Origin: an uncultured Actinomycetes bacterium
Lineage (GTDB): Bacteria; Actinomycetota; Acidimicrobiia; Acidimicrobiales; CADCTF01
DNA length: 64,000 nt
Direction: 5' to 3'
Assembly: GCA_963750255.1 (NCBI GenBank)
Contig: CAVVPZ010000009.1
Span: forward strand, 134,602 to 198,601
In this document: positions 9,323 to 55,301 of the stretch, piece after piece
Layout of the letters: each line of letters begins with the position of its first letter
Position numbering within the stretch: position 1 is the first letter of the stretch
Notes under the pieces: model-generated
Database searches by the model: none
What the model was told of the DNA's origin: nothing
Seen by the model: the letters and a program-made list of their open reading frames with translations, nothing else
Program-made: the position numbers and the translations under genes

Positions 9323-10171
9323 CTAGACGGCGACCGGCGCTTGGGCGCGCATGAGGTCGCGCAGCGGTCGATATCCGATGAGGTGGACGTCGGCGTCGGC
9401 GAGGCGGGTTGCGAAGTCGTCCTCGGTGACGAGCGACAAGTCGTCGACCCGGCCGGTCCAGTCGGTCTCGGCGAGGGCGCGGAGTTCGGGAGTGTCGAGG
9501 GCGGGGTGGACGTAGACCTCTGTGACTCCCGGTCGGAGCCGGTCGACGAGCGGCAGCACCGAACCTCGGCTGCCGACGCCTCGGACCACGACGAAATGAT
9601 CGGGGAAGACGACGCCCTCCTCTGCGGCCAGACGACGGAACGGAAACCCGATGGCGCGCTCGGTCGAGGTCCCCGAGAGGCGGAGCGGCAGTCGGAAGTC
9701 GACGGCGAGCTCGAGGTAGACGTCGAAGAACTCGGGGCGGAGTTGGAGGGTGCCCATGTGCGAGTCGAGGTGGCTGACGTCGAATCCCCAGTAGATGGCT
9801 CGCTCGACCTGCGCCCGCAGCTCGCGGCGGACCTCGTCGAGGTCGGCGTGCTCCCAGACGTCCTCGACGGTGCGAGGGAACCCGCCATCACCGTCGAGCA
9901 ACGAGGGGGCGTGCGTGATCGGGCCCCAGCGGTAGAGGTCGTACTCGGCGTTGAGGGTGAGATGGACGCCGACGTCCTCTCCGCGGTAGCGGGCGGCGGC
10001 CTCGCGAGCCCACGGGCAGGGCACCATCAAGGTGGCGCTGGTGGCGAGGCCCGTGCGGAGCGCCTCGTACACGCCGAGGTTGGCCGCGTGGCTCGACCCG
10101 AGGTCGTCGGCGTTGACGATGAGGAGCTTGTCGTCGGGCGAATAGCCGAGCTGTTCCGCCAGCGAGATCAC
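9323..10171 (-). CDS. ChbG/HpnK (YdjC-like) carbohydrate deacetylase family protein
   Basis: From GTG 10171: VISLAEQLGYSPDDKLLIVNADDLGSSHAANLG...HLDSHMG are YdjC motifs. The upstream part of the 392-aa ORF is R/P-rich non-coding-like. Confidence 0.8.
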   Translation of the reverse strand: MISLAEQLGYSPDDKLLIVNADDLGSSHAANLGVYEALRTGLATSATLMVPCPWAREAAARYRGEDVGVHLTLNAEYDLYRWGPITHAPSLLDGDGGFPRTVEDVWEHADLDEVRRELRAQVERAIYWGFDVSHLDSHMGTLQLRPEFFDVYLELAVDFRLPLRLSGTSTERAIGFPFRRLAAEEGVVFPDHFVVVRGVGSRGSVLPLVDRLRPGVTEVYVHPALDTPELRALAETDWTGRVDDLSLVTEDDFATRLADADVHLIGYRPLRDLMRAQAPVAV

Positions 10172-10203: not shown

Positions 10204-10740
10204 TCAGAGCGGTTTGTCGGGGCCGCCGCAACGACCCCACAGGCCCCGGCCGTCGCGTCGCGCTCGGGCGGCGGCGTCGACGAACTCGCTGCTGTGGGCC
10301 ACGTTGGGCGGAATGGTCAGGGGAGCGGCAAACCCGTCGCGGGCGAGGCTGAGGTTGACGAAGAGGTCGTCGCTGGCGCGATACACGTAGGCCAGGAGGC
10401 GCCCGTAGCGATCGCGGGCTTCGGCATCGCGCACGAGCCGCACAGTCGTGCCCGCCGGCACGAGCTTGGTCGTGCGATCTGACGCTTCCTGGCCGAAGCA
10501 CTCGCGAAGGCCGCCGGGGCCGTGGGTCTCGGGCGTGTCGATCCCGATGAGTCGCACCGACTCGGTGTCGCGCTGGCCCGGAAAGCGGATGCGGATGGTG
10601 TCACCGTCGACGACCTTGGTCACCACCGCCGCGCCCGCCAGCGCCCCATCGGTGACCGCCGTCGTCGGCGGTGGCGCCCCACAGGCCCAGGCGGTCAGGG
10701 CCACGCCGACGACGACGATGACGGCGAGTCGGCGGAGCAT
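10204..10740 (-). CDS. thermonuclease (SNase/micrococcal nuclease-like) lipoprotein
   Basis: Signal plus lipobox LTAWAC. VVDGDTIRI, VRLIGIDTPE and YGRLLAYV are the SNase signature. Confidence 0.85.
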   Translation of the reverse strand: MLRRLAVIVVVGVALTAWACGAPPPTTAVTDGALAGAAVVTKVVDGDTIRIRFPGQRDTESVRLIGIDTPETHGPGGLRECFGQEASDRTTKLVPAGTTVRLVRDAEARDRYGRLLAYVYRASDDLFVNLSLARDGFAAPLTIPPNVAHSSEFVDAAARARRDGRGLWGRCGGPDKPL

Positions 10741-10753
10741 CCCCTCATTGTGA

Positions 10754-10820
10754 CCCCTCCCCGTTTTGGGCAGGACCAGAGCGCGATCGCGCTCTGGTCC
10801 TGCCCAATACGGTGGGGGGG
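10754..10820. repeat. palindromic element copy 1 (perfect 38-bp palindrome 10768-10805)
   Basis: CCCCGTTTTGGGCAGGACCAGAGCGCGA|TCGCGCTCTGGTCCTGCCCAATACGG. Same core as the copies at 40528 and 41065. It lies between divergent starts 10740 (-) and 10821 (+). Confidence 0.9.
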
Positions 10821-14698: not shown

Positions 14699-16567
14699 TC
14701 AGCCCGAGCGCCGCAGTCCGTCGGTCCAGAACCGGGTGCGGGTCAGATAGGCGCCCTCGGCATCGGCCCCGCTGCGGCCGTAGGCGCCGTCGTAGGACCG
14801 GTAGCAGTACGCCGCCGGGTCGCTGTTGGCACACACCCCGGCGCGGGCCGGTTCGATCTGCGTGCCCTCGTGCCACTCGTTGTAGGAGGTGATGCTGATC
14901 ACGTCGGCGCCGGCCCCGTAGGCGCCGACCCAGAACTCGTCGAAGCGATCACCGGCGCGCCGCTCGCGCACGGTGTCGTCGGGCACGCCCCGTCGCCCGT
15001 CGTAGCCCGGGTTCACCGACGGCGAGCAGGCCAAGCCTCGAGCGCGAGCACGGGCGCAGAAGGTCCCGAGTTCGGCCGGCGTGTACCCGAGCGGGTCGTA
15101 GGTGTAGACGCCATCGAACCCGGCGCGGGCGGCATAGGCGGCGAAGAGTCCCCGCACGCCGTTGCTGGCCGAGTGACCGTGGGCCCAGAAGGTGAAGTCG
15201 GGCAGCCGGTCGGTGAGCGCTTTCCAGTCGTCGGCCGGCGGACCATCGGATGCGTAGATCCAGAATTCGTAGATACCGAACCGGTGGGCGAGCGTGAGCA
15301 CGTCGCGCTGCACACTGTCGACGGTCCGGCCCGGGTAGGGCTCGATGTGGACCGCGGCTCGGATCCCGTGGGCACGCGCCAGCGCCACGACGGCGCCGAG
15401 ACGGGCGTCTTCATACGACCCGAGCCCCCACCACGAGATCACGACGGTGTCGACGCCGGCGGCGGCGAGGTCGGTCATGTGTTGGTCCACGACCTCTGAG
15501 TCGCTACTGCGATAGGGGCCCCGAGACGGGAAGAAGTTGGCTGCGATGTCTGCCGGGGGTTGATGGCCGTGATCGGACCAGTGGAACCACGCCGGGTTGT
15601 CGTCGGGTCCGCCGTACCACGGGTAGTAGAAGGCGGCGCTGGTGACCGGACCGGGCTTGGGCCGAGCGGCCATGGCCACGACGGGCGAGTTGAGGGGGCT
15701 GCCGCCCGCCGATCCGAAGAACCTGGCGTCACCAAACGTGAAGATGCCGCCGTCGCGAGCGGCGAGCCAGTACCCGCTCCCCAGTCCGGTCGGTGCCATG
15801 GCGACGATGGGTTGGTTGAGTTTGATGTTGCCGGTGGATCCGAGGAAGGCGGCGTCGCCGAAGGTGAAGATGCCGCCGTCGCTGGCGGTGAGCCAGTAGC
15901 CGTTGCCGGTGGGGGTGGCGGCCATGGCGACGATGGGTTGGTTGAGTTGGATGTTGCCGGTGGATCCGAGGAAGGCGGCGTCGCCGAAGGTGAAGATGCC
16001 GCCGTCGCTGGCGGTGAGCCAGTAGCCGTTGCCGGTGGGGGTGGCGGCCATGCCGACGATGGGTTGGTTGAGTTGGATGTTGCCGGTGGATCCGAGGAAG
16101 GCGGCGTCGCCGAAGGTGAAGATGCCGCCGTCGCTGGCGGTGAGCCAGTAGCCGTTGCCGGTGGGGGTGGCCGCCATGGCCACGATGGGTTGGTTGAGAC
16201 GCTGGCCACCCGTCGAGCCGAGGAACCGGGCGTCGCCGAACGAGAAGATGCCGCCGTCGCTGGCCACGAGCCAATAGCCGCGGCCCGATGGTGTCGAGGC
16301 CAGGCCGACCACCGGGCGGCGCAGCGGCAGGTCGCCGGCCGACCCGCGGAACTCGGCGTCGCCGTAGGTGAAGATGCCGCCGTCGGCCGCCGCCAATCGG
16401 TACCCGCTCGACGTACGGCTCACCGGTGGGGGAGCGGTGACGGTCTCGGCCAGCGCCGGGGTGGCAGGCGTGAAAGCAAGCGAGGCGAGGGTGACGAAAG
16501 CGACGACGGGCAGGATCGAGGCGGCCGTCCGTCGCCGACGCCGCCCGGGGGGACGGGGCGGGGACAT
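14699..16567 (-). CDS. secreted protein: six ~42-aa GYWL..DGGIF.FGDA.F.GS repeats plus a C-terminal GH99-like glycoside hydrolase domain
   Basis: From ATG 16567: MSPPRPPGRRRRRTAASILPVVAFVTLASLAF signal. The C-terminus has FYYPWYG, FHW, VISWW, HIEPYPGR, GFDGVYTYD, PSVNPGY and ISITSYNEWHEGTQIEPA, matching the GH99 endo-alpha-mannosidase pattern. Confidence 0.85.
   Translation of the reverse strand: MSPPRPPGRRRRRTAASILPVVAFVTLASLAFTPATPALAETVTAPPPVSRTSSGYRLAAADGGIFTYGDAEFRGSAGDLPLRRPVVGLASTPSGRGYWLVASDGGIFSFGDARFLGSTGGQRLNQPIVAMAATPTGNGYWLTASDGGIFTFGDAAFLGSTGNIQLNQPIVGMAATPTGNGYWLTASDGGIFTFGDAAFLGSTGNIQLNQPIVAMAATPTGNGYWLTASDGGIFTFGDAAFLGSTGNIKLNQPIVAMAPTGLGSGYWLAARDGGIFTFGDARFFGSAGGSPLNSPVVAMAARPKPGPVTSAAFYYPWYGGPDDNPAWFHWSDHGHQPPADIAANFFPSRGPYRSSDSEVVDQHMTDLAAAGVDTVVISWWGLGSYEDARLGAVVALARAHGIRAAVHIEPYPGRTVDSVQRDVLTLAHRFGIYEFWIYASDGPPADDWKALTDRLPDFTFWAHGHSASNGVRGLFAAYAARAGFDGVYTYDPLGYTPAELGTFCARARARGLACSPSVNPGYDGRRGVPDDTVRERRAGDRFDEFWVGAYGAGADVISITSYNEWHEGTQIEPARAGVCANSDPAAYCYRSYDGAYGRSGADAEGAYLTRTRFWTDGLRRSG
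15801..16178. repeat. three near-identical tandem 126-bp units (coding; propeller blades 3-5)
   Basis: Units 15801-15926, 15927-16052 and 16053-16178 differ by 1-2 nt each. More diverged units flank them, from about 15675 to 16430. Confidence 0.9.
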
Positions 16568-29262: not shown

Positions 29263-30860
29263 GCCGCTTGTAGTCGACCTTGCCGTTGGGTGCCCGGCCG
29301 ATCGTGTCGAGACGGCCAGCACTCGCTTGGGCGCCTTGTAGGCGGCCAAGCGGCTCTTCACGTGAGCGATCGACGTCGGCCTCGTCGATCTCGACGCCCG
29401 GGCACGAGCTCGACCATCGCGGTGATCGCCTCGCCGAACTTGTCGTCGGGCACGCCGACGGCGACGGCGTCGCGGACGTCGGGGTGGGTCTTGAGGGCCT
29501 CCTCGACCTCCTCGGGGAAGACCTTCTCGCCGCCGGTGTTGATGCACGACCGAGCCGCGGCCGAGCAGCGTCGAGCGTGCCGTCGGCCTCGACGGTGGCG
29601 AAGTCGCCGGGCACCGAGTAGCGCTCGCCGTCGATGACCTGGAACGTGCGTCGCCGACTTCTCCGGGTCCTTGTAGTAGCCGATCGGGCGTGCGGCCCTT
29701 GACGGCCACGATGCCCGACCTCGCCCGAGCCCGGCTCGACGTCGCGGCCGTCGTCGGTGATCACGCGGGCGTTGCTCGCCGAGCTTGAACTTCGCCGTGT
29801 TCGACGCTGCCGCCGGCGGACGACACCGAGCTGCCCATGCCGAGCGCCTCGGACGACGAGAACTGGTCGACGCAGGATCATGCCGCTGTGGTGCTTGAGC
29901 AGGCCCTGCTTGGTCTCCTCGCTCCACATCACGCCCGAGGAGATGATGGCGACGAGGCTCGACAGGTCCCATCGACCGGGATCGGCCTCGAGGGCGCGCA
30001 GCATCGGTTTGGCGAACGCGTCGCCGACGATGGCGAGGATGCTGACGCCGTGTCGCTCGACCTCGTCGAGCAGCTCCTCGGGGTCGAAGGCGCGGTTGGA
30101 GAGGGTGACGATGCAGCCCGCGCTGCCGAGCGACGAGAACGAGGTGAACGCGCCGGTGCCGTGCATGAGCGGGCACGCCGGCATCGTCTCGGGGCCGGGC
30201 GCCTTGATCGACTCGCGCACGAGGTCGAGGTCGGGGTTGGACGGATCGAGCCGCACGCCGAGGCTGGTCGCATTGAGGGTGCAGGAACAGGTCGTCCTGG
30301 CGCCACATCACGCCCTTCGGCATGCCGGTCGTGCCGCCCGTGTAGAGCATGTAGAGGTCGTCGCCGCTGCGGCCCCACGGCGCCTCGACCCGCTCGGCGT
30401 GCGAGTTCGCCGACGTCCTCGTACGGAGTCGCCCAGTCGGGGCAGGGGCCCGAGTCGTCGTCGACCCACAGCCATCCCTTGACGTTGGGCAGCTTGTCGC
30501 GGAGCGTCTCGATCGCGCTCGGCGAACGCGCCGTGGAAGACGACGGCGATGGCGTCGGCGTTGTCCCACAGGTAGAGCAGCTCGTCGTCGGCGTAGCGGT
30601 AGTTGGTGTTGACCGGGACGAGCCCGACCTTGAACATCCGCGAACATCGACTCGAGGTACTCGGGGCAGTTGTAGAGGTAGTGGGCCACCTTGTCCTGAT
30701 GGACGGCGCCGAGCGCCGAGCAGGCCAGTTGGCGATGCCGTTGGCCCGGGTGTCGAACTCGCCCCAGGTCACCGTCCGATCGCCCTGGATCTGGCAGGGC
30801 GCGTCGGGCAGATTCGTCTGCGGCGATCTCCCAGACGTCGGCGAAGTTCCATCCGGCCAT
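29234..30860 (-). pseudogene. AMP-dependent acyl-CoA synthetase/ligase, many frameshifts as assembled
   Basis: Fragments lie in three minus frames: [115 protein letters not shown]. Confidence 0.8.
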
Positions 30861-32146: not shown

Positions 32147-32177
32147 GGCCGGACTGTAGGTGGATAGGTTTCGGGTC

Positions 32178-33068
32178 ATGACGGGAATCTGCGATGGACG
32201 GGTCGTGATCGTGACGGGCGCTGGGCGTGGCATCGGGCGGGAGGAAGCGCTGTTGTTCGCGGCCGAAGGGGCCAAGGTGGTGGTCAACGACTACGGCGTC
32301 GACCTCGACGGCGGCGGCCCAAGAGCGAGGTGGCCGAGTCGGTGGTCGCCGAGATCGAAGCCATGGGCGGCGAGGCGGTGGCGAACGGCGACGACATCGT
32401 CCGACTGGGAGGGGTCGCAGCGCCTCGATCAACCTGGCGGTCGAGACCTTCGGCGGTCTCGACACGCTGGTCAACAACGCCGGCATCCTCCGCGACCGGA
32501 TGCTCGTCAACATGACCGAGGAGGAGTGGGACGCGGTCATCCGGGTCCACCTCAAGGGCACGTTCTGCACCACCCGCTGGGCGGCGGCGTACTGGCGGGA
32601 GCGGATCAAGGCGGGCGAGACGAACGAGGCGCGCGTGGTCAACACGTCGTCGGGGTCAGGCCTCTACGGCAACCCGGGCAGAGCAACTACGGCGCGGCCA
32701 AGTCGGGCATCGCCTCGTTCTCGGTCATCGTGGCCAAGGAACTGGCCCGCTACGGCGTGACGGTCAACGCCATCGCTCCCGGCGCCCGCACCCGGATGAC
32801 GCTGAGCGTGCCTCGCCCCGGCGCGGCCGCTCCCGCCGAGGTGCCGGCTGACGAATTCGACCGCCGCGACCCGGCCAACGTCGCGCCGCTGGTCGTCTGG
32901 CTCGGGGGGTCCACATCGGGCGAGGTCACCGGACAGGTGTTCAATGTCGCCGGCGGGATGATCGGCGTGGCCGAGAACTGGCGGCGGGGCCCGTCGCGCG
33001 ACAAGGGCGACCGCTGGTCTCCGGCCGAGGTCGGCGACGTGGTGCCGGCCCTCCTGGCCGAGGTCTGA
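32178..33068 (+). pseudogene. short-chain dehydrogenase/reductase (SDR), about 4 frameshifts (about 32318, 32400, 32428, 32679)
   Basis: [14 protein letters not shown]; [10 protein letters not shown] in a second frame; [13 protein letters not shown] then [11 protein letters not shown] (YxxxK) back in the first frame. Confidence 0.8.
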
Positions 33069-33131: not shown

Positions 33132-34383
33132 TCAGCTGGTGCGGGTCTCCCGGAAGGGCACGTCGCGATCGACCGAGGGCTCTTTCGGGAGCCCGAGGAC
33201 GCGCTCGCCGATGATGTTGCGCTGCACCTCGTCGGTCCCGCCTGCGATCGACGAGGACTGGATGCGCAGCGCCATCTGTTGAAAGCGGCCACCGGCGGGC
33301 GCGTCGTCGCCGACGAGCATCCCCGACGGCCCCTCGATGGCCAGCGAAAGGTCGCGGGCTCGCCGGCCCAACTCGGCCGACAACAACTTGCCCGTCGACA
33401 CTTCGGGGCCGGGCATCTTGCCCTTGGCCGCTGCCGCCCGCATGCGGAGCGTGCTCATTCGGTGCGCCTCCGACAGGGAATACATCGACGCCAGCCGGTC
33501 CCGCAGTACGGGCTCGCCAACCCGCCCCAGCTCCCGGGCCAGGTCGATCACCGACGACACCGATCCGGCGGTCATCGCCGCCTGCTGCTCGCCGGCCCGC
33601 TGTCGGGCGGCGGCCCGCAGTTCGCTGATGGGCCGGTCGAGCATGCCGTTCTTCTCGCCCGGCGCGCCGACGCCAGACATCCCGGCCCGGCCCCGCCGAT
33701 GCCTTGGCGCTCGTAGGCCAACGTCGAGACAGGCCACCATCCACCCGTCGTTCGAACGAGCCGACGAGGCGTCGTGGGACACGACGGCGTCGGTGAAGAA
33801 CACCTCGTTGAACGTCGCCCCGCCGTCCATCTGCTTCAGGGGCCGGACCTCGACGCCGGGCTGATCCATGTCGATGATGAAGTAGGTGATGCCCCGGTGC
33901 TTGGGCTACGTCGGGGTCGGTCCGGGCCACGAGCATGCCGCGGTCGGTGCTGCCGGCGCCCGACGTCCACACCTTCTGGCCGTTGACGATCCACTCGTCG
34001 CCGTCGCGGATCGGCCGTGGTCTGCAGCGCCGGCCAGGTCGGAGCCGGCCTCTGGCTCGCTGAAGAGCTGGCACCACGAGCCTCGATGCCCGAGGCCAGG
34101 GCGGAGCACCAACCGCTCCGTTGCTCCTCGGTGCCGTGTTCGAGCACGACGGGCCGCCCATCATCTGGCCCAGGCCACCGGGGGCGCCGATGGCGTCGGC
34201 TGCGGCCAGGGCCTCGCCGATTTCGCGGGCCTCGCCTTGGGTTGCCCCGCAGCGCCGTAGCCCATGGGGAACGACGGAAAGGCGTAGCCGGCGCCAGCCA
34301 ACTGGCCCCACCACTCGCGAAGTGTGAGGACCGGGAGTCCAGGTCTCGGACACCCACGCCGCTGCTTGTTCGACCACGCCCAT
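33132..34383 (-). pseudogene. acyl-CoA dehydrogenase family protein, multiple frameshifts
   Basis: MGVVEQAAAWVSETW; WCQLFSEPEAGSDLAG; DGDEWIVNGQKVWTSGA; the C-terminal half is intact (IAGGTDEVQRNIIGERVLGLP). Confidence 0.8.
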
Positions 34384-34440
34384 CTCGCTCCCCCCGGACT
34401 CGTTCGCCTCGACGCCCGCGACGGTAGCTTCCCCTGATGT

Positions 34441-35589
34441 TCAGGCGCTCACGGTCGAATCCACCGGGATTTCTTTTTCCGGCCGGGGGAGGCGGGTCGC
34501 CGAGGCCGGTGTCCTCGTAGATGGCGTCGGAGACGGCGGCGAGGCGGGCGTAGTGGCGATCGGTCCCCGGCATCCCGTTGGTCTGGAAGGCGACCACGAG
34601 GTGGTGCTGCGGGTCGCAGTAGGCGATGGAGGACTGGGCCCCGCCGTGGCCGAAAACCCGGCGCGAGGAGTGCCGACCGTGCGAGCTCGAGTCGATGCCG
34701 AGGCCGAGGCCCCAGTCGAGGGTGATCCCGAACGTCTCGTCGAAGATCCCGACGCGGTGCCGCGCCGTGACCGCCTCGACCGTCTGCCGGCCGAGGAGGC
34801 GCACGCCGTCTCGCTCGCCATGCCCGTCGAGCATCTCGTAGAGGCGGGCCAGCTGACGCATGGGGCCCCGCCCTCCGCCGCCGGGCGAGCAGCGGGTCGA
34901 GCGAGCCCAGGGAGTCGAGTTGGGTGAGTGGGATGGCGGACCCGCCGGCGGTGTGGTGCATGGTGCCGACGCGCTCGCCGTAGGCCTCCGCCGCTTCGAT
35001 GGGCATGCCGACCCAGCAGTCGTCCATCCCGAGGGGGACGAACACCTCGTCGCGCACGTATTGGGAGTAGAAGCGACCGTCGACCCGGCGCAGGACTTCG
35101 GCGAGGATCGTCATCCCGCACGTGAGGTGGTAGCCGGCTCGTTCGCCCGGCACCCAACCCTCTTCCTGAGTCGACGGCGCAGATACCGGCGATGACCTCG
35201 TGCCAGTTGGCCTCGGGCTCCTTTGCCGAGCTGGTGACCGCGTCGCCAGCCCGGAAGCCTGCGGTGTGGGTGAGGCAGTGGCGGATGGTGATGGCGTCCT
35301 TGCCGTTGACCCCGAACTCGGGGATGTAGGTGGCGATGCGGTCGTCGAGGTCGATCTGGCCTTGCTCCCACAACTGCGCCATCGACACAGCCACGGTGGC
35401 CTTGGTCATCGAGAACCAGATCACCATCTGATCGGGCGTCATCGGCCTGCCTGTGCGGGCTTCGCCGACGGCGCCGTCGGCGATCACCTCGCCGTCGAGC
35501 GACACGTACAACTGGGCGCCGAGGTGGAGGCCCTCGGCGATCCCGGCTTCGATCACCTTGGTCGTACGGGGCACGGCAGTCAGCGTCAT
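34441..35589 (-). pseudogene. beta-lactamase-related serine hydrolase (class C/esterase family), multiple frameshifts; 3' end uncertain
   Basis: From ATG 35589: IWFSMTKATVAVSM (SxxK). Later fragments PGERAGYHLTCG and FGHGGAQSSIAYCDP lie in other frames. Confidence 0.75.
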
Positions 35590-35614
35590 GGTCGCCGAGC
35601 GTAGATTCCAGAGC

Positions 35615-36772
35615 ATGGACTTCGAACTGCCCGGTGAAGACGACCCCCGTCGCGTCGAGGTGCGGGAGTGGCTCGCAGCCAACCCCTCCCCGACCGGGCG
35701 GCAGTTGGCCGAGGCCGGCTACGTGGTGCCGCACTGGCCCGCACCGTGGGGCAAGGGGGCCGACCCCGTCCACCAGCTGATCATCGACGAGGAGCTCCGC
35801 TCGGCCCGGGTTTCTCGGCCCGGCAACGTCATCGGCATCGGGTGGGCGGGCCCCACCATCGTGCACGCCGGCACGCAGGCGCAGAAGGAGCGCTACCTCT
35901 GGCCCATCCTCTCCGGCGAGGAGATCTGGTGTCAGCTCTTCAGCGAGCCCGGCGCCGGGTCAGACCTGGCCAACCTCGGCACCCGGGCCATCAAGGACGG
36001 CGACACCTACGTGGTCAACGGACAGAAGATCTGGACGTCGCTGGCGCACAACTCGAAGTTCGGAATCCTGATCGCCCGGACCAACCCCGACGCACCCAAG
36101 CACAAGGGCGTGTCGTACTTCATCTGTCCGATGGACCTCCCCGGCATCGAGATCCGCCCGATCATCGAGATGACCGGAGGCCACACGTTCAACGAAGTCT
36201 TCTTCGACGAAGTGCGTCTCCCGGCCGAGAACCTCGTCGGCGACGAGCACGAAGGCTGGGGCCTGGCCAAGGTCACCCTCGGCAACGAACGGGTGTCGCT
36301 GTCGGGCGAGGGAGCGTTGTGGGGTCGGGGACCGACCGCCGGCGACCTCGTGGACGCCGTTCGCTCGGGTGAGATCCCGGGCCGGGACGACCCCTTGGCC
36401 CGCCAGCGTCTGGCGTCGGTCTACACCGAGGCCGAAGTCCTCCGCCTCATCCGGCTCCGCACCGTGAGCGCAGCCGTCAAAGGTCGCCCGCCCGGTCCGG
36501 AGGCTTCGGTCCGCAAGGCGCTGTCCGACGAGCACGGCCAACACATCATGGGCGCGGCCAAGGACCTGGCCGGGACGCGCGGCATGCTCACCGAGCCGGG
36601 CGGTATGTGGCACTACGGCTTCTTGTTCGCGCCGGCGTTGACCGTGGGCGGCGGCACTTCTGAGGTTCAACGGAACATCATCGGCGAGCGTGTTCTGGAT
36701 CTGCCGCACGACATCGACGTCGAAGCCGGTCAGACTTGGAGCGAGGCTCGGGCCAAAGGCGCCCGCGCCTGA
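35615..36772 (+). CDS. acyl-CoA dehydrogenase family protein (intact)
   Basis: From ATG 35615: WCQLFSEPGAGSDLANL, YVVNGQKIWTS and GGGTSEVQRNIIGERVL. Confidence 0.9.
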   Translation: MDFELPGEDDPRRVEVREWLAANPSPTGRQLAEAGYVVPHWPAPWGKGADPVHQLIIDEELRSARVSRPGNVIGIGWAGPTIVHAGTQAQKERYLWPILSGEEIWCQLFSEPGAGSDLANLGTRAIKDGDTYVVNGQKIWTSLAHNSKFGILIARTNPDAPKHKGVSYFICPMDLPGIEIRPIIEMTGGHTFNEVFFDEVRLPAENLVGDEHEGWGLAKVTLGNERVSLSGEGALWGRGPTAGDLVDAVRSGEIPGRDDPLARQRLASVYTEAEVLRLIRLRTVSAAVKGRPPGPEASVRKALSDEHGQHIMGAAKDLAGTRGMLTEPGGMWHYGFLFAPALTVGGGTSEVQRNIIGERVLDLPHDIDVEAGQTWSEARAKGARA

Positions 36773-36785
36773 GGGGGATTCCGAC

Positions 36786-38368
36786 GTGGCCATCACCGAC
36801 CTGGCAGCGATCGTCCGGACGCACGGCGCCGAGCGCCCCGATCGGACCGCCATCGTCTATGAGGACCGCGAGATCACGTGGCGAGACCTCGACCAACGCT
36901 CCAACGCCGTGGCCGCCGGCCTGGCCGCTGCCGGTGTCGGCGCCCAGGCTCGCGTGGCCCGCATCGACAAGAACGACCCCACCTATTACGAAATGCTCTT
37001 CGGCGCGGCCAAGGGCAACGGCGTGCTGGTCGACGTCAACTGGCGCCTGGCCGCACCCGAGATGGTGCAGATCGTCAACGACGCCCAGGCCCAGGTCTTG
37101 TTCGTCGGAGCCGACTTCGCCCCGCTGCTCGACAAGATCGAGCCCGAGCTGACCACGGTCGAGACGATCATTGTCTTGGGCGACGGCACCGGCATCGTGT
37201 TGGGCGAGGGCACGGGCCATGACTCGTACGAGGACTGGATCGCCCGGACCGCCGGAGCCGCCGATCCCGGCGTCGTACCCGATGGTGACGACGTCGCCCT
37301 CCAGCTCTACACGTCGGGCACGACCGGCCTGCCCAAGGGCGTGATGCTCACGAACGACAACTTGTTCTCCTTCGTCACCGAAGTGGCGCCGGCGTGGGGC
37401 TTCACCGGGGATTCGGTGTCGATCGTGGTGATGCCCCTGTTCCACATCGCCGGCGGCGGCTGGTCGATCGCCAGCATGGTCATGGCGGCCAAGTGCGTCC
37501 TGCTCCGCGACGTCGACCCCACGCTCATCCTCCGCAAGGTCGAGGAGGAGCGGGTCACCCACGCCATCTTCGTGCCCGCCGTGCTCCAGTTCCTGCTCAT
37601 CACGCCCACGCTGGCCACAACCGACCTGTCGAGCTTCGAGCTCATCGTCTACGGCGCGTCGCCGATCACCGAGAACGTGCTGCGGGGCTCGATGGACGCC
37701 TTCGGCTGCGAGTTCATCCAGGTGTACGGGCTCACCGAGACGACCGGGGCCTGCATCCAGCTCGACGGCGACGACCACGACCCCGACAACCGCCCGGAGC
37801 TGCTCCGCTCGTGCGGCAAGCCCTACCCCTGGGTCGAGGTGCGCATCGTCGGCGACGACGGCGAGGACGTGCCCGAGGGCGAGGTCGGGGAGTTGTGGAT
37901 CCGGTCGGTCCAGGTCATGAAGGGCTACTGGAACAAGCCCGAGGACACGGCGGCCGCCCTCACCGACGACGGCTGGTTCAAGACCGGGCGACGCCGGCTA
38001 CTGGCGCGACGGCTACCTCTACCTCCACGACCGGGTCAAGGACATGATCGTGTCGGGCGGCGAGAACGTGTACCCGGCCGAGGTCGAGAACGCCCTCATG
38101 GCCCACCCGGACGTGGCCGACGTCGGCGTCATCGGCGTCCCCGACGACAGGTGGGGCGAGGCCGTGCAAGGCCATCGTGGTGAAGGCCGAGGGGTCCGAC
38201 CCGACAGCCCAGGAACTCATCGCCTTTGCTCGCGAGCGGCTGGCCGGGTTCAAGTGTCCCAAGTCGGTGTCGTTCGCCGAGGCGCTGCCCCGCAACCCGT
38301 CGGGCAAGATCCTCAAGCGCGAACTGCGCCAGCCCTACTGGGAGGGTCGGGAGCGCCAGATCAACTGA
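36786..38368 (+). pseudogene. long-chain-fatty-acid--CoA ligase (FadD-like), two frameshifts (about 37986, 38167)
   Basis: LQLYTSGTTGLPKGVML, YGLTETTG and DGWFKTG are followed in the +1 frame by [33 protein letters not shown], then in the +2 frame by KAIVVKAEG...[14 protein letters not shown]. Confidence 0.85.
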
Positions 38369-39598
38369 CCCGGGAGCCCCGATAGGCGCCGGGTCCGGTG
38401 AGCATGCGCCGGTGCCAACGCGCCGGGGTGCCCAGCACGGCGCGGGGGTAGTCCTCGAAGAGCCACCGACCGAAGTTCCGGCGGGTCCAGTCGGAGGTGC
38501 CGGCGACGCGTACGGCGAGGTCGGCGCCGAACCGGTGCGCGAGCGCCTTCGACAGGGTTGCGGCCAAGCGGTGGTCGACGGCCAAGCCGGCGATCACGGC
38601 GCGTTCGTAGCGGGCGGCGGCCCGCCGCGGTCGGCCGAGCCGGCAGCCACGATGGCGTCGGCGGCGAGGATGCCGGTCTCCAGCGCTTGGCCGATGCCCT
38701 CGCCCGTCATCGGGTCGGTGGCCCGGGCGGCATCCCCCACGAACAGCACCCGTCCGTCGCCGCCGTGCAAGGCCGTCTGGTCGACCCGCGCAGGGATGGG
38801 CCATGCCTTGTGGGCCGACTCGGGGGTGGCGTCGGGACCGAGGACCTCGGTGATGTGGGGGCGGCGAAGGAGGTCGGTCCACTGGGACTTCATCGACCTG
38901 GTGGGCTCGCCGGGCTGGCGGAGGATGCCGAATCCCACGTTGGCCCGTCCGCTGCCGAGGGGGAACGACCACGCGTAGCCCGGCAACAGGTCGTCGTCGA
39001 ACCACACCCACAAGCCTTCGGCTGCCCTCGGGCCCACCGAGTGGAAGTACTGCCGGAAGGCGTGCCACTCGCCGAGGTATCCGACGCCGTCGGCGTCGAC
39101 CGGGAGGAGCGTCTTTCGCAGCGGCGACCACATCCCGTCGGCGGCGATCGACGAAGCGGGCTTCGACGGCGCCGAGATGCTCGACGTCGAGCACGACCCG
39201 GTCGGCTTGCGCCTCCACACCGAGCACGGCCGAGCCCTCGTAAACGGTGACGCCGGAGCGGCGGGCGACGTCGAGAAAGGCGGCGTCGAGTTCCTGGCGG
39301 CGGGCGACGACGGCGTAGGTGCCGCGCTCGCGGGGGAGGGGGAACGTCGACCAACTGACCGGACGGGGCCCGGACGTGCACGTCGTCCACCGCGCGTCCA
39401 ACTCGGCACGGCGGCGGGGTCGAGGCCGAGTCCCTCGAAGCGCCGGAGGGCGCCCGTGGTCAATCCGTCGCCGCAGCACTTGTCCCGCGGGAACTTCGCC
39501 TTGTCGACCAGCACGACCCGCCGGCCGGCCCGGGCCAGGGTGATGGCCGCGGCTACCCCCGCCGGGCCACCGCCGGCCACGAGCACGTCGGCGATCAC
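38361..39598 (-). pseudogene. geranylgeranyl reductase family FAD-dependent oxidoreductase, about 4 frameshifts
   Basis: From GTG 39598: DVLVAGGGPAGVAAAITLARAGRRVVLVDK, CCGDGLT, IAADGMWSPLRK, VLFVGDAARATDPMTGEGIGQALE. The tail ...RYERAVIAGL is in another frame. GTGA overlap with the upstream gene. Confidence 0.8.
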
Positions 39599-40504
39599 TT
39601 CTCCAGCACGGCCCGCAGCGCCGCTTCGACGTCGGCGTACTCGAATCGGTACCCGGATGCTTCGGCAACGGTGGGCAGCACCCGTTGGCCGGCCAGGATC
39701 ACCTCCTCGGTGAGTTGGCCACCCATGAGCAGGGAGAGTGCGAACTTCGGCACCGGGAGCACCGTCGGCCGGCCGAGCACGCGCCCGGCGGCCTTGACCA
39801 CCTCGGCGTTGGTGGCAGGGTTCGGGGCGGTGGCGTTGAGCGGACCGGACACCGAGTTCGTGCACAAGGCATGGACGATGAGGCCCACCTCGTCGGCCAG
39901 GCTGACCCAGCTCCACCACTGGTCGCCACGCCCGAGCTTTCCACCTACGCCGAGCTTGAGGAACGGCAGCATGCGTCCCATCGCGCCGCCCGATCCGGAC
40001 GAGCACGATGCCGGTGCGGAGATGGACGGTGCGGATGCCGGCCTCCTCCGCCGCTGCGGTCGCCGCCTCCCAGGCCACGCACACCTCGGCCAAGAAGCCG
40101 GCGCCGGCGGCGCTGGCCTCGGTGAGGATCTCATCGCCCCGCAGTCCGTAGTAGCCGACTGCCGAACCAGAGACGAACACGGCCGGCCTGGGGTCGAGTC
40201 CGGCGATGGTCTCAGCCAGCAGGCGAGTTCCGCGGACGCGACTGTCGCGGATCTTGCGCTTCTGTTCGTCGCTCCAACGCTTCTCGCCGATGCCCTCACC
40301 CGCGAGGTGGACGACGCCGTCGATCGGTCCGACCGAACGCACCGCCGCGAGGTCGACCGACCCGGCGCCGATGTCCCAGGAGACTTCGTCGCCCCCATGG
40401 CTGGCCTGGCGCACCAATCGAATCGGATGGTGGCCGTCGCGGCGCAGCCACGCGATGAGCGCCTCACCGATGAGTCCGGATGATCCGCTGACGAGCACAC
40501 GCAT
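39595..40504 (-). pseudogene. TIGR01777-type NAD-dependent epimerase/dehydratase family protein, one frameshift (about 40000)
   Basis: MRVLVSGSSGLIGEAL...VVHLAGEGIGEKRWS...HLRTGIVL is followed in another frame by SGSGGAMGRMLPFLKLGVGGKLGRGDQWWSWVSLADEV. Confidence 0.8.
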
Positions 40505-40585
40505 GCCCGCAACCTACGCCCCGTTTTGGGCTTGGTGAGAGCGCGATCGCGCTCTCACCAAGCCCGAAACGGAAGGGTGGAGGGG
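40505..40585. repeat. palindromic element copy 2 within a duplicated 81-nt spacer (perfect 38-bp palindrome 40528-40565)
   Basis: GGGCTTGGTGAGAGCGCGA|TCGCGCTCTCACCAAGCCC with CCCCGTTTT / GAAACGG extensions. The whole spacer aligns with 41042-41121. Confidence 0.9.
40511..40516 (-). promoter_or_regulatory. putative -10 TAGGTT, 6 nt upstream of epimerase ATG 40504
   Basis: The minus strand reads TAGGTT-gcgggc-ATG. Confidence 0.3.
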
Positions 40586-41041
40586 TCAGTAGGTGCCCTT
40601 GATGACGAAATAGGAGCCTCGGATGGTCCCGGCGAGCTTCGATTTCTGCCTGGCGAACTTGAACGCCGAGAGCTCCTCGGGGATCTCCATGCCGTCGGAC
40701 AGTTTGAACCCGACGGCCCGCTTCTTCGGCTCGTCGAGCAGGACGTTGATCGACAGCCCGCTCTCGTAGAAGACGTAGGTCCAGCGGATGCCTTCGACCT
40801 CGAAGCTCGTCGCCTCGAGAGGAGGCGACTCGATCACGATGTCGCGCTCCTCTTTGAGAATCCGGTGAACCCAGGCGATGGCTTTCTTGGCCTTGGCTGC
40901 CGGTTCGACCGTGAAGTCGTGGTCGTACTTGTTCTTGAAGTACCGGGCCTCGTTGGCCCGCAGGCCGGCCAGCGCCGCCGCCACCGGCGACGAGTCCACT
41001 CCGACGGTCGACACGTTCACGAAATCCACCGTGTAGCTCAT
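40586..41041 (-). CDS. orphan hypothetical protein (151 aa), visibly lower GC than its neighbours
   Basis: Clean ORF MSYTVDFVNVSTVG...SYFVIKGTY, rich in K/F/Y/I/E unlike the surrounding A/R/G-rich proteins. I recognise no motif. It is bracketed by the two spacer copies. Confidence 0.7.
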   Translation of the reverse strand: MSYTVDFVNVSTVGVDSSPVAAALAGLRANEARYFKNKYDHDFTVEPAAKAKKAIAWVHRILKEERDIVIESPPLEATSFEVEGIRWTYVFYESGLSINVLLDEPKKRAVGFKLSDGMEIPEELSAFKFARQKSKLAGTIRGSYFVIKGTY

Positions 41042-41121
41042 GCCTGCAACCTAGGCCTCGTTTTGGGCTTGGTCAGAGCGCGATCGCGCTCTGACGAAGC
41101 CCAAAACGAAAGGGGGGAGGG
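41042..41121. repeat. palindromic element copy 3 within a duplicated 80-nt spacer (38-bp palindrome 41065-41102, one mismatched pair)
   Basis: GGGCTTGGTCAGAGCGCGA|TCGCGCTCTGACGAAGCCC. The flanks CATGCCTGCAACCTAGGCC... and ...GGGGGGAGGGTCA match copy 2. Confidence 0.9.
41048..41053 (-). promoter_or_regulatory. putative -10 TAGGTT, 6 nt upstream of orphan ORF ATG 41041
   Basis: The minus strand reads TAGGTT-gcaggc-ATG. Confidence 0.3.
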
Positions 41122-41547
41122 TCAGTTGACCTTCTGGTTGTCCATGGCGTGGATGCGACGGGCCATGCCGATCAGCAGCTTGTGGGCCAGGGTGGGCACG
41201 ATGTCGAGGAGGGCGCTGAACTCACGCTGGCCCAGGATCAGTGCGTCGATCTCGGTCTCGGCCACGACGGTGGCATTGCGGGGGGCGCGGTCGAGGAGCG
41301 AGAGCTCGCCGAAGGCGTCGCCGGGGCCGAGCGTGTTGATCTGCTTCTTGCCTCGCCGGACCGAAGCCTTGCCGTCGATGATGACGTAGAACTCGTAGCC
41401 GACTCGACCCTCGGTCGTCATCTCGGTACCTGCGGGGATCTTCAGGTGCTCCGAGTGCTTGGCGACCGTAGCCAGATCCTTCTTTGTGCAGGCGCTGAAC
41501 AGCGGCACCTTCGTGAGATACCCGAGAACATCGTCCCGCCGAGCCAT
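41122..41547 (-). CDS. stand-alone cyclic-nucleotide-binding (CAP effector) domain protein
   Basis: 141 aa with FYVIIDGKASV and LGPGDAFGELSLLDRAPRNATVVAETE (cNMP-binding signature). There is no HTH or other output domain. Confidence 0.85.
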   Translation of the reverse strand: MARRDDVLGYLTKVPLFSACTKKDLATVAKHSEHLKIPAGTEMTTEGRVGYEFYVIIDGKASVRRGKKQINTLGPGDAFGELSLLDRAPRNATVVAETEIDALILGQREFSALLDIVPTLAHKLLIGMARRIHAMDNQKVN

Positions 41548-53728: not shown

Positions 53729-55270
<1,542 letters not shown>

Positions 55271-55301
55271 GGGTTCGCCCTCCGGTTCGGTCGGCATCGT
55301 C

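Follow-up and report, generated by a model that had tools for sequence, protein, structure and literature searches.

The DNA described here, referred to throughout as the window, is a stretch of 64,000 nucleotides from an uncultured bacterium of the Acidimicrobiales (assembly GCA_963750255.1, contig CAVVPZ010000009.1, positions 134,602 to 198,601). It carries, all on the minus strand and in this order, a cNMP-binding gene, an 80-nt spacer, an open reading frame (ORF) of 151 codons designated ORF151, an 81-nt spacer, and an epimerase-family gene. Both spacers contain a 52-nt palindrome and a -10-like hexamer, and this article is concerned with how ORF151 came to lie between two copies of a single ancestral spacer. 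The elements of the locus, in the direction of transcription, are:

41122-41547, minus strand: gene for a cNMP-binding-domain protein of 141 aa (Pfam PF00027, E = 2e-15), the upstream neighbour, ending AAC TGA
41042-41121, minus strand: spacer copy 2, from the cNMP stop to the ORF151 start, with a C-rich tract, the 52-nt palindrome, and the duplicated epimerase promoter
41058-41109: palindrome copy 2, 52 nt, with a single C/C mismatch (78.5 bits; -46.8 kcal/mol, z = -7.0)
41048-41053, minus strand: TAGGTT, the -10-like hexamer 6 nt before the ORF151 ATG, a copy of the epimerase promoter (AACCTA on the plus strand)
40586-41041, minus strand: ORF151, the inserted gene, coding sequence only, from a conserved family of unknown function
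40505-40585, minus strand: spacer copy 1, from the ORF151 stop to the epimerase start, aligned with copy 2, its 3' end matching the ancestral epimerase upstream sequence
40521-40572: palindrome copy 1, 52 nt, with one mismatched pair that reads T/G on the plus strand and C/A on the minus (79.1 bits; -54.4 kcal/mol, z = -8.3)
40511-40516, minus strand: TAGGTT, the -10-like hexamer 6 nt before the epimerase ATG, ancestral and found as TAGGTTGCGGCC-ATG in the related loci L108-L114 (AACCTA on the plus strand)
39595-40504, minus strand: epimerase-family gene, the downstream neighbour, with an Epimerase domain (Pfam PF01370) and a DUF1731-type C-terminus, in two frames with a break near 39990-40001

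The spacers 41042-41121 and 40505-40585 can be aligned end to end, from the CAT of a start codon to the TCA of the preceding stop codon, with approximately 90% identity. The alignment contains nine substitutions and one 1-nt indel, exactly the count given in an earlier reading of the letters (hereafter the first-pass annotation). The indel sits within a C-run and may be a sequencing error, given that several genes in the assembly are frameshifted, for which reason single-base indels are not to be over-read. The two-frame reading of the epimerase gene was obtained by tblastn with the orthologue of the related locus L109.

Empty junctions and the duplicated spacer

Relatives were chosen as the closest homologs of the cNMP-binding protein, and the contigs encoding them were then read; the orthologues are 76-88% identical and lie in a gene order matching that of the window. 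In L109 (GCA_046597375.1; 87% identity in the cNMP protein) and in L110-L114 (JGI metagenomes; 88%), the cNMP gene is directly followed by the epimerase gene. L109 displays the full order of the window, which runs nitronate monooxygenase, VanW, cNMP, epimerase, FAD-dependent reductase, AMP-ligase, acyl-CoA dehydrogenase, beta-lactamase-like, short-chain dehydrogenase, and DUF5925-AAA, and the shorter contigs of L110-L114 show parts of it. The gene calls of L108 (87%) are fragmented, and in its sequence the epimerase start codon is found 44 nt downstream of the cNMP gene. Direct adjacency is also seen in L116 (GCA_035525495.1; 79%), with a 30-nt spacer, and in the gene calls of L109-L114 and L116 a gap of 30-88 nt separates the cNMP gene from the epimerase gene. 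L115 (78%) shows a rearrangement on the downstream side of its cNMP gene. At the junctions of L108, L109, L110-L114, and L116, neither ORF151 nor the palindrome is present. Since the junction is empty in the more distant L116 as well, adjacency of the cNMP and epimerase genes is ancestral, and ORF151 is a derived insertion in the lineage of the window. The first-pass annotation had proposed an ancestral junction that gained the ORF along with a second copy of the spacer, a proposal borne out by the empty sites of L108-L114 and L116, around which the gene order has been kept.

The hexamer TAGGTT and its identical 6-nt spacing to the ATG, both pointed out in the first pass, are present in each spacer copy, the hexamer occupying positions -12 to -7 from the A of the ATG of ORF151 and of the epimerase gene. 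The same hexamer is kept in eight orthologous epimerase upstream regions, including that of the window, and the spacers of L108-L114 all end in G[CG]GTGC[CG]TAGGTTGCGGCC-ATGCGCGTC. As far as these orthologues indicate, TAGGTT-N6-ATG is the ancestral upstream sequence of the epimerase gene. In Mycobacterium tuberculosis, transcription start sites have a TANNNT motif at 7-12 bp on their upstream side and lack a -35 consensus (PMC3898074); by position and conservation, TAGGTT-N6-ATG fits this actinobacterial TANNNT geometry of leaderless promoters. The promoters of ORF151 and of the epimerase gene would both be expected to fire, giving leaderless mRNAs.

Both window spacers hold the ancestral TAGGTTGCGG promoter of the epimerase gene, which does not accompany a third copy of the palindrome found elsewhere in the window, and both carry the derived junction GGC-ATG where the relatives have GCC-ATG. 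These shared characters lie outside the palindrome, which shows that the whole spacer, and not the repeat alone, was duplicated, and that this took place after the palindrome had arrived. The first-pass annotation had allowed for the spacer similarity being that of a general intergenic repeat; the palindrome is indeed a dispersed repeat, but the end-to-end similarity of the spacers exceeds it. In its present state, the locus has TAGGTT-N6-ATG before both ORF151 and the epimerase gene and the same strong hairpin after both the cNMP gene and ORF151.

Relative to TAGGTT, the ATG of ORF151 is placed exactly as that of the epimerase gene. Homologs of ORF151 in three other loci (L101, L103, and L105) are preceded by a conserved native leader of 45-60 nt, with CCGTCGACGG and then, 6-8 nt ahead of the ATG, the Shine-Dalgarno sequence GGGAG; both the leader and the Shine-Dalgarno sequence are absent before ORF151 in the window. 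The absence of the native leader, together with an ATG in the position of the epimerase ATG, shows that the coding sequence alone was inserted. The leader of the homologs (9940-10000 in each of the three loci) is of interest in itself, as it consists of a -10-like hexamer, (T/C)CCGTCGACGG, a second related GC-rich box, and GGGAG. It matches no Rfam family at the gathering threshold and may be an undescribed cis-regulatory element or operator.

ORF151 and the palindromic repeat

ORF151 was described in the first-pass annotation as an orphan of foreign, AT-richer appearance. It is no orphan, having more than 8000 homologs at E <= 0.001, of which the 120 best all show 83-100% identity and, with few exceptions, measure 150-155 aa; an exhaustive search yields 812 clusters at 50% identity. 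Identity within the family is 83-90% across many Actinomycetota and 65-73% to Bacillus and Paenibacillus, so that the Bacillota are included, and homologs 65-73% identical occur on PLSDB replicons of Arthrobacter, Bacillus thuringiensis, and Paenibacillus. The lower GC content is real (0.62 overall vs 0.685 for window genes), but the values for the three codon positions (GC1 0.56, GC2 0.40, GC3 0.89) place the deficit at positions 1 and 2 only, GC3 being 0.85±0.04 for 61 window ORFs, so that the AT-richer appearance stems from the amino acids that the protein contains (K, F, Y, I, E). Synonymous codons fit the pooled usage of the other genes better than those of most genes do (rank 37/40, z = +1.5). 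GC3 and codon choice are accordingly native, the very outcome that the first-pass annotation had named as contrary to its own reading.

No family in Pfam, NCBIfam, or PHROG and no sequence match in PDB was found for ORF151. An AlphaFold2 model with a mean predicted local distance difference test score (pLDDT) of 92 predicts an alpha+beta fold, for which searches of PDB and BFVD returned no structural neighbour (best E = 0.01, TM <=0.36). The neighbours of ORF151 homologs in seven loci are regulators, small enzymes, and ligand-binding proteins (TetR, ArsR-AHSA1, GyrI-like), and no ORF151 paralogs were found among the other 151-153-aa genes near the homologs. NCBI records label some homologs as 'phage tail protein' (tail tube), an identity that was rejected given the lack of a Pfam, NCBIfam, or PHROG family, of structural neighbours, and of tail genes nearby. 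A phage origin was likewise set aside, the single phage match being a 3.9-kb 'UNVERIFIED_ORG' record that was not taken as evidence.

In a palindrome scan, copies 1 and 2 of the palindrome have 25/26 arm positions paired around the core AGAGCGCGATCGCGCTCT, with GATC as the loop and no bulges. The apex is AGAGCGCGATCGCGCTCT and the arms are composed of GTTTTGGGC and six variable bases; between the two copies, a compensatory C-G to G-C swap adjoins the apex. The palindrome reported for each spacer in the first pass is real, although its length is 52 nt rather than 38 bp, and a third copy was missed. The latter and its flanking genes are:

10759-10814: palindrome copy 3 (74.8 bits), 30 kb away, absent from the orthologous spacer in L117 and L118
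10204-10740, minus strand: SNase-family nuclease gene flanking palindrome copy 3, with its ATG at 10740
from 10821, plus strand: divergent lipoprotein gene on the other flank of palindrome copy 3

The promoter-side flanks of copy 3 are unrelated to those of copies 1 and 2. The core AGAGCGCGATCGCGCTCT occurs three times in the window with zero mismatches, compared with a shuffle expectation of 0.21 even when three mismatches are allowed. The three hairpins have fold energies of -47 to -66 kcal/mol and z-scores of -7 to -9, and a covariance model gives them 72-79 bits, with all else in the window at <=15.5 bits. No other long intergenic palindrome was found by the palindrome scan of the 64-kb window, and neither canonical terminators nor sigma-70 promoters were called at the palindromes. 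Rfam gave no match anywhere in the window at the gathering threshold, and a permissive scan of 40300-41300 yielded nothing above threshold, just similar-looking hairpins that belong for the most part to microRNA precursor families. The spacer had no BLAST match among plasmids and phages.

A scan of a genome collection with the 18-nt core listed at least 100 matches. Among the matches listed, most are chance or coding occurrences, many of them in cyanobacteria rich in GCGATCGC, and extended palindromes are present only at L041, L054, and the unrelated L031. L041 and L054 are two hairpins in another Acidimicrobiales metagenome-assembled genome (MAG) that have the same 18-nt apex and different arms (TCTGGCGTCTGTG). 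A strict-pattern scan (GGGC-N6-core-N6-GCCC) returned a sole metagenome contig, L106, with a same-apex hairpin downstream of rplL. A viral-contig scan produced a single match that has no extended palindrome around the core and was taken as chance. At L031, positions 2277-2364 form a perfect 88-nt palindrome around the same core in a long-read proteobacterial MAG; it represents a hairpin repeat of no relation or else a fold-back artefact of the assembly. The MAG carrying the related hairpins also has a second, unrelated palindrome of 56 nt (L041, 4566-4621; GAGATTTCCACAGCTGTTTCGGGGGC...), and long intergenic palindromes may be general in these Acidimicrobiales genomes.

The three window copies and those of L041, L054, and L106 are all intergenic hairpins, and in five of the six a TGA stop codon and a C-rich tract precede the hairpin, at a distance of 8-25 nt. 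Across the six, 93% of cells are paired; both partners have changed in 13 of 24 pairs, a single partner in none, and G-U accounts for one of the 144 cells. As selection at the RNA level would tolerate G-U pairs, so strict a Watson-Crick symmetry, with no wobble intermediates, suggests that the constraint acts on the DNA, be it a hairpin, a cruciform, or a symmetric site. All six hairpins were found by searching with the apex, and its identity across genomes is in part built in.

The covariance model was run on 274 kb of fetched loci, among which those syntenic to the window in relatives, and those neighbouring them, gave no match to the palindrome. The SNase/lipoprotein spacer of L117 (77% SNase identity) and of L118 (68%; from the same MAG as L116) is 39-62 nt long, has no palindrome, and retains the local gene order; the SNase start there is preceded by a -10-like hexamer, CACAAT or CAAGAT, then N6 and GTG. 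The palindrome is absent from two orthologous spacers in relatives, from which it follows that the element has entered at least two short spacers, each time with the adjacent leaderless-type promoter left intact. Judged by this distribution, the palindrome is a dispersed, lineage-specific repeat; it is probably a REP/MITE-like (repetitive extragenic palindromic/miniature inverted-repeat transposable element) hairpin repeat acting at the DNA level, and may also serve as the 3'-end hairpin of the upstream gene.

Upstream of the SNase gene in the window (10741-10760), the geometry is of the leaderless type, with a hexamer, six bases, and ATG (GTG in relatives), and leaderless promoters seem common in this lineage. 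The 30-nt cNMP-epimerase spacer of L116 (621-650) is nearly all taken up by a small hairpin of its own (GCAGGACGC-GTA-GCGTCCTGC), and it may be that function favours a hairpin of one sequence or another at this junction.

The window contains several other repeats. A 15-nt-period tandem repeat at 54725-55291 encodes the C-terminal tail of an NYN-type ribonuclease-domain protein and matches histone-H1-like HC2 (PF07382), and five 126-nt tandem units at 15666-16421 fall in the N-terminal part of a GH99-domain protein. Inverted repeats of 45 nt (87%; 34032-34076 and 35927-35971) bracket a beta-lactamase-like region, and a further pair of 107 nt (79%) lies at 29428-29534 and 38056-38162; the arm at 38056-38162, within the AMP-binding enzyme region, may stem from a paralogue encoded on the opposite strand. 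Interrupted genes are also found at several points. The two-frame genes within 38379-40504 include the FAD-dependent reductase, with a frame break near 38585-38633; the beta-lactamase-like gene is split into 33836-34861 and 34441-35682 (region 33135-35682); and one acyl-CoA dehydrogenase and one short-chain dehydrogenase are partial, the frameshifted regions including 32160-33065. L108, which comes from the same project as the window, is similarly fragmented. The two-frame genes are probably products of long-read indel errors rather than pseudogenes.

Route of insertion and competing explanations

The history that accounts best for these observations begins with a cNMP gene, 30-88 nt of spacer, and an epimerase gene with the leaderless-type promoter TAGGTT-N6-ATG, as still seen in the relatives. 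The palindromic element of about 52 nt, by its presence here and absence there, entered this spacer, as it did the site at 10759-10814, sparing the -10 hexamer and the start codon. The ORF151 coding sequence was then placed at the junction, with the spacer duplicated from the stop (ACTGA) to the start (CATG). Deprived of its native leader, ORF151 is probably transcribed as a leaderless mRNA from the copy of the epimerase promoter. Fork stalling and template switching (FoSTeS) and microhomology-mediated break-induced replication (MMBIR) are processes of microhomology-mediated template switching that yield tandem duplications with a templated insertion at the junction. A replicative switch of this type is suggested because a short segment has been duplicated in tandem, an ectopic sequence lies exactly at the junction, and there is microhomology at both joints. 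This amounts to 4-5 nt, namely C-ATG, common to the starts of the ORF151 homologs and of the epimerase gene, and AC-TGA, common to the ends of ORF151 and of the cNMP gene. The 52-nt palindrome is capable of stalling a replication fork and is a plausible trigger of the switch. One departure from the FoSTeS/MMBIR pattern is that these microhomologies are start and stop codons with one or two bases added, and may reflect selection for an expressible product. An alternative route would be single-crossover integration, at the repeat, of a circular intermediate made up of the ORF plus a spacer. Taken as a whole, the insertion of a bare coding sequence with whole-spacer duplication at a palindrome-bearing junction, template switching being the simplest route, is the explanation we regard as probable, and the locus presents a clear case of local genome rearrangement rather than of an integron-type cassette system.

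Several points weigh against this account. The route of insertion is one that we infer, and the 4-5-nt microhomologies are weak indicators, as start and stop codons form part of them and ATG and TGA are common to many genes; moreover, no donor copy of ORF151 was seen in the 64-kb window. The occupied site is found in no relative examined, and the age of the event can be gauged only roughly from the 11% divergence between the spacers, which indicates that it was not recent. Promoter and leaderless status are read from geometry and conservation. With regard to the palindrome, its copy number (three) refers to the 64-kb window, and neither a transposase nor a target-site duplication ties it to transposition, such duplications being undefinable where the relatives' spacers are too divergent. 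The hairpin is without a T-tract, is followed by AAAACGG on either strand, and was not called as an intrinsic terminator in a terminator scan, and one copy lies between divergent genes; any terminator role is therefore no more than putative.

Other histories of the two spacers fare considerably worse. Were ORF151 already in place, two independent insertions of the palindrome might have come to flank it with no spacer duplication, as could be imagined of a dispersed repeat that has entered other spacers. The similarity, however, extends over parts that do not belong to the repeat, the TAGGTTGC(A/G)GGC-ATG promoter and the TGACCC(C)TCC tract, and ORF151 is absent from the junction in all eight of the loci examined in relatives (seven empty junctions and the rearranged L115) and sits, without its native leader, exactly where the epimerase ATG would be, so that this reading is scarcely credible. 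It is also very unlikely that ORF151 and both spacers are ancestral and were lost from the relatives by recombination between direct repeats. Direct repeats of 80 nt can mediate deletion, and polarity does depend on few lineages, as the identity of the cNMP protein does not exceed 88% in any relative sampled; a deletion, however, would leave behind one palindrome-bearing spacer, and the spacers of the relatives are free of the palindrome and unlike each other, the more distant L116 is empty too, and the relatives lack the palindrome at the second locus as well. A different proposition is that the palindrome is mainly a regulatory or termination signal, whether as the operator of a dimeric DNA-binding protein or as a hairpin at RNA 3' ends, and that each site recruited it independently. 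The 18-nt apex, identical in three genomes, the arms that vary yet stay complementary, the TGA stop codon 8-25 nt ahead of five of the six hairpins, and the position 17-21 nt upstream of three start codons with -10-like hexamers all speak for such a role. Set against them are the lack of a U-tract, a length of 52 bp that far exceeds that of an operator, the copy between divergent genes, the near-absence of G-U pairs (one in 144 cells), which runs counter to RNA-level selection, and the fact that apex identity across genomes is partly a product of the apex search. We consider this proposition unlikely, and it is in any case compatible with the preferred explanation for the insertion of ORF151.

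The first-pass annotation had likened the arrangement to the capture of a cassette at an attC-like site. In an integron-like scenario, the hairpin would be an attC-type single-stranded site, ORF151 with one hairpin a cassette, and the recombinase encoded elsewhere. The locus shares with integron cassettes (Nivina et al., 2016, PMC5027507) a promoterless coding sequence between direct copies of a hairpin-containing repeat, a borrowed promoter, and an empty site in relatives. By definition (PMC5027507), attC sites carry the cores R'' (RYYYAAC) and R' (GTTRRRY) at the two hairpin ends, and their strands are told apart by extrahelical bases, a central spacer that is left unpaired, and a variable terminal structure; the near-perfect palindrome has none of these. 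Its arms read GTTTTGGGC ... GCCCAAAAC on both strands, with GTT on the 5' side and AAC on the 3' side, the reverse of attC, and with a purine/pyrimidine pattern that does not match; its fold is symmetrical on both strands, without the strand asymmetry of attC. The duplicated unit extends beyond the hairpin to take in the stop-proximal tract as well as the ancestral promoter of the neighbour, the repeat brackets a single ORF, and copy 3, between divergent genes, has no cassette-like ORF flanked by repeats. The window has no intI, attI, or cassette array, and among the approximately 55 of its ORFs that were scanned, Pfam detected neither integrase nor transposase, in agreement with the first pass. 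On these grounds, capture of the integron kind is most improbable. A bolder conjecture, which we hold to be very doubtful, is that the palindrome family constitutes the recombination site of an undescribed gene-shuffling system of the Acidimicrobiales, in which a host or element enzyme would recognise the apex AGAGCGC-GATC-GCGCTCT of the extruded hairpin and make staggered cuts at the spacer ends, promoterless coding sequences would be inserted, and repair would duplicate the spacer. The duplication of the repeat during CRISPR spacer acquisition offers a model for that last step. If this were true, each captured gene would receive a leaderless promoter and a 3' hairpin.

Related repeats and significance

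Among known elements, the palindrome invites comparison with the REP sequences and REPINs that are associated with RAYTs, which are IS200/IS605-like Y1 transposases (Bertels and Rainey, 2011, PMC3116915). Like them, it is a short extragenic palindrome that is dispersed in one lineage and absent from orthologous sites in relatives, its hairpin is kept by compensatory changes, and it is often located just after the 3' ends of genes. Presence or absence at orthologous sites, a mobility trait of the REP type, was observed at both spacers. Unlike REPs, its copies are single perfect hairpins of 52 nt and not doublets of 20-40-nt units, and the 18-nt apex is constant across genomes while the arms differ. 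REPs number tens to hundreds per genome; the 64 kb of the window hold three copies of the palindrome. A cognate RAYT gene usually has REPs on its flanks, and no RAYT was found in the window. REPIN-RAYT systems are not known to have been described in this phylum (Actinomycetota, Acidimicrobiales). Mycobacterial interspersed repetitive units (MIRUs) are reportedly located in the intergenic regions of operons (Supply et al., 1997) and are likewise actinobacterial repeats of 40-100 nt in short co-directional spacers, abutting stop and start codons. They are, however, tandem direct units without a long perfect palindrome, in contrast to the single hairpin found here, and have no sequence similarity to it.

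The locus does not overturn current views. The palindrome represents a new repeat family in the Acidimicrobiales, without an Rfam match, in which the apex is invariant among six copies and the arms covary. The family lends itself to tracking across whole genomes, either to mark recombination hot spots or as the potential substrate of a hairpin-binding enzyme not yet known. ORF151 belongs to a very strongly conserved family (65-90% identity in the Actinomycetota and Bacillota) with a confidently predicted fold and no structural neighbour, and is worth a closer look. The locus is also a clean, internally controlled, and datable case of relocation, in which a gene appears to have moved as a bare coding sequence and would have been expressible at once by way of a duplicated leaderless promoter. 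Promoter capture of that kind would be possible only in lineages that use leaderless mRNAs.

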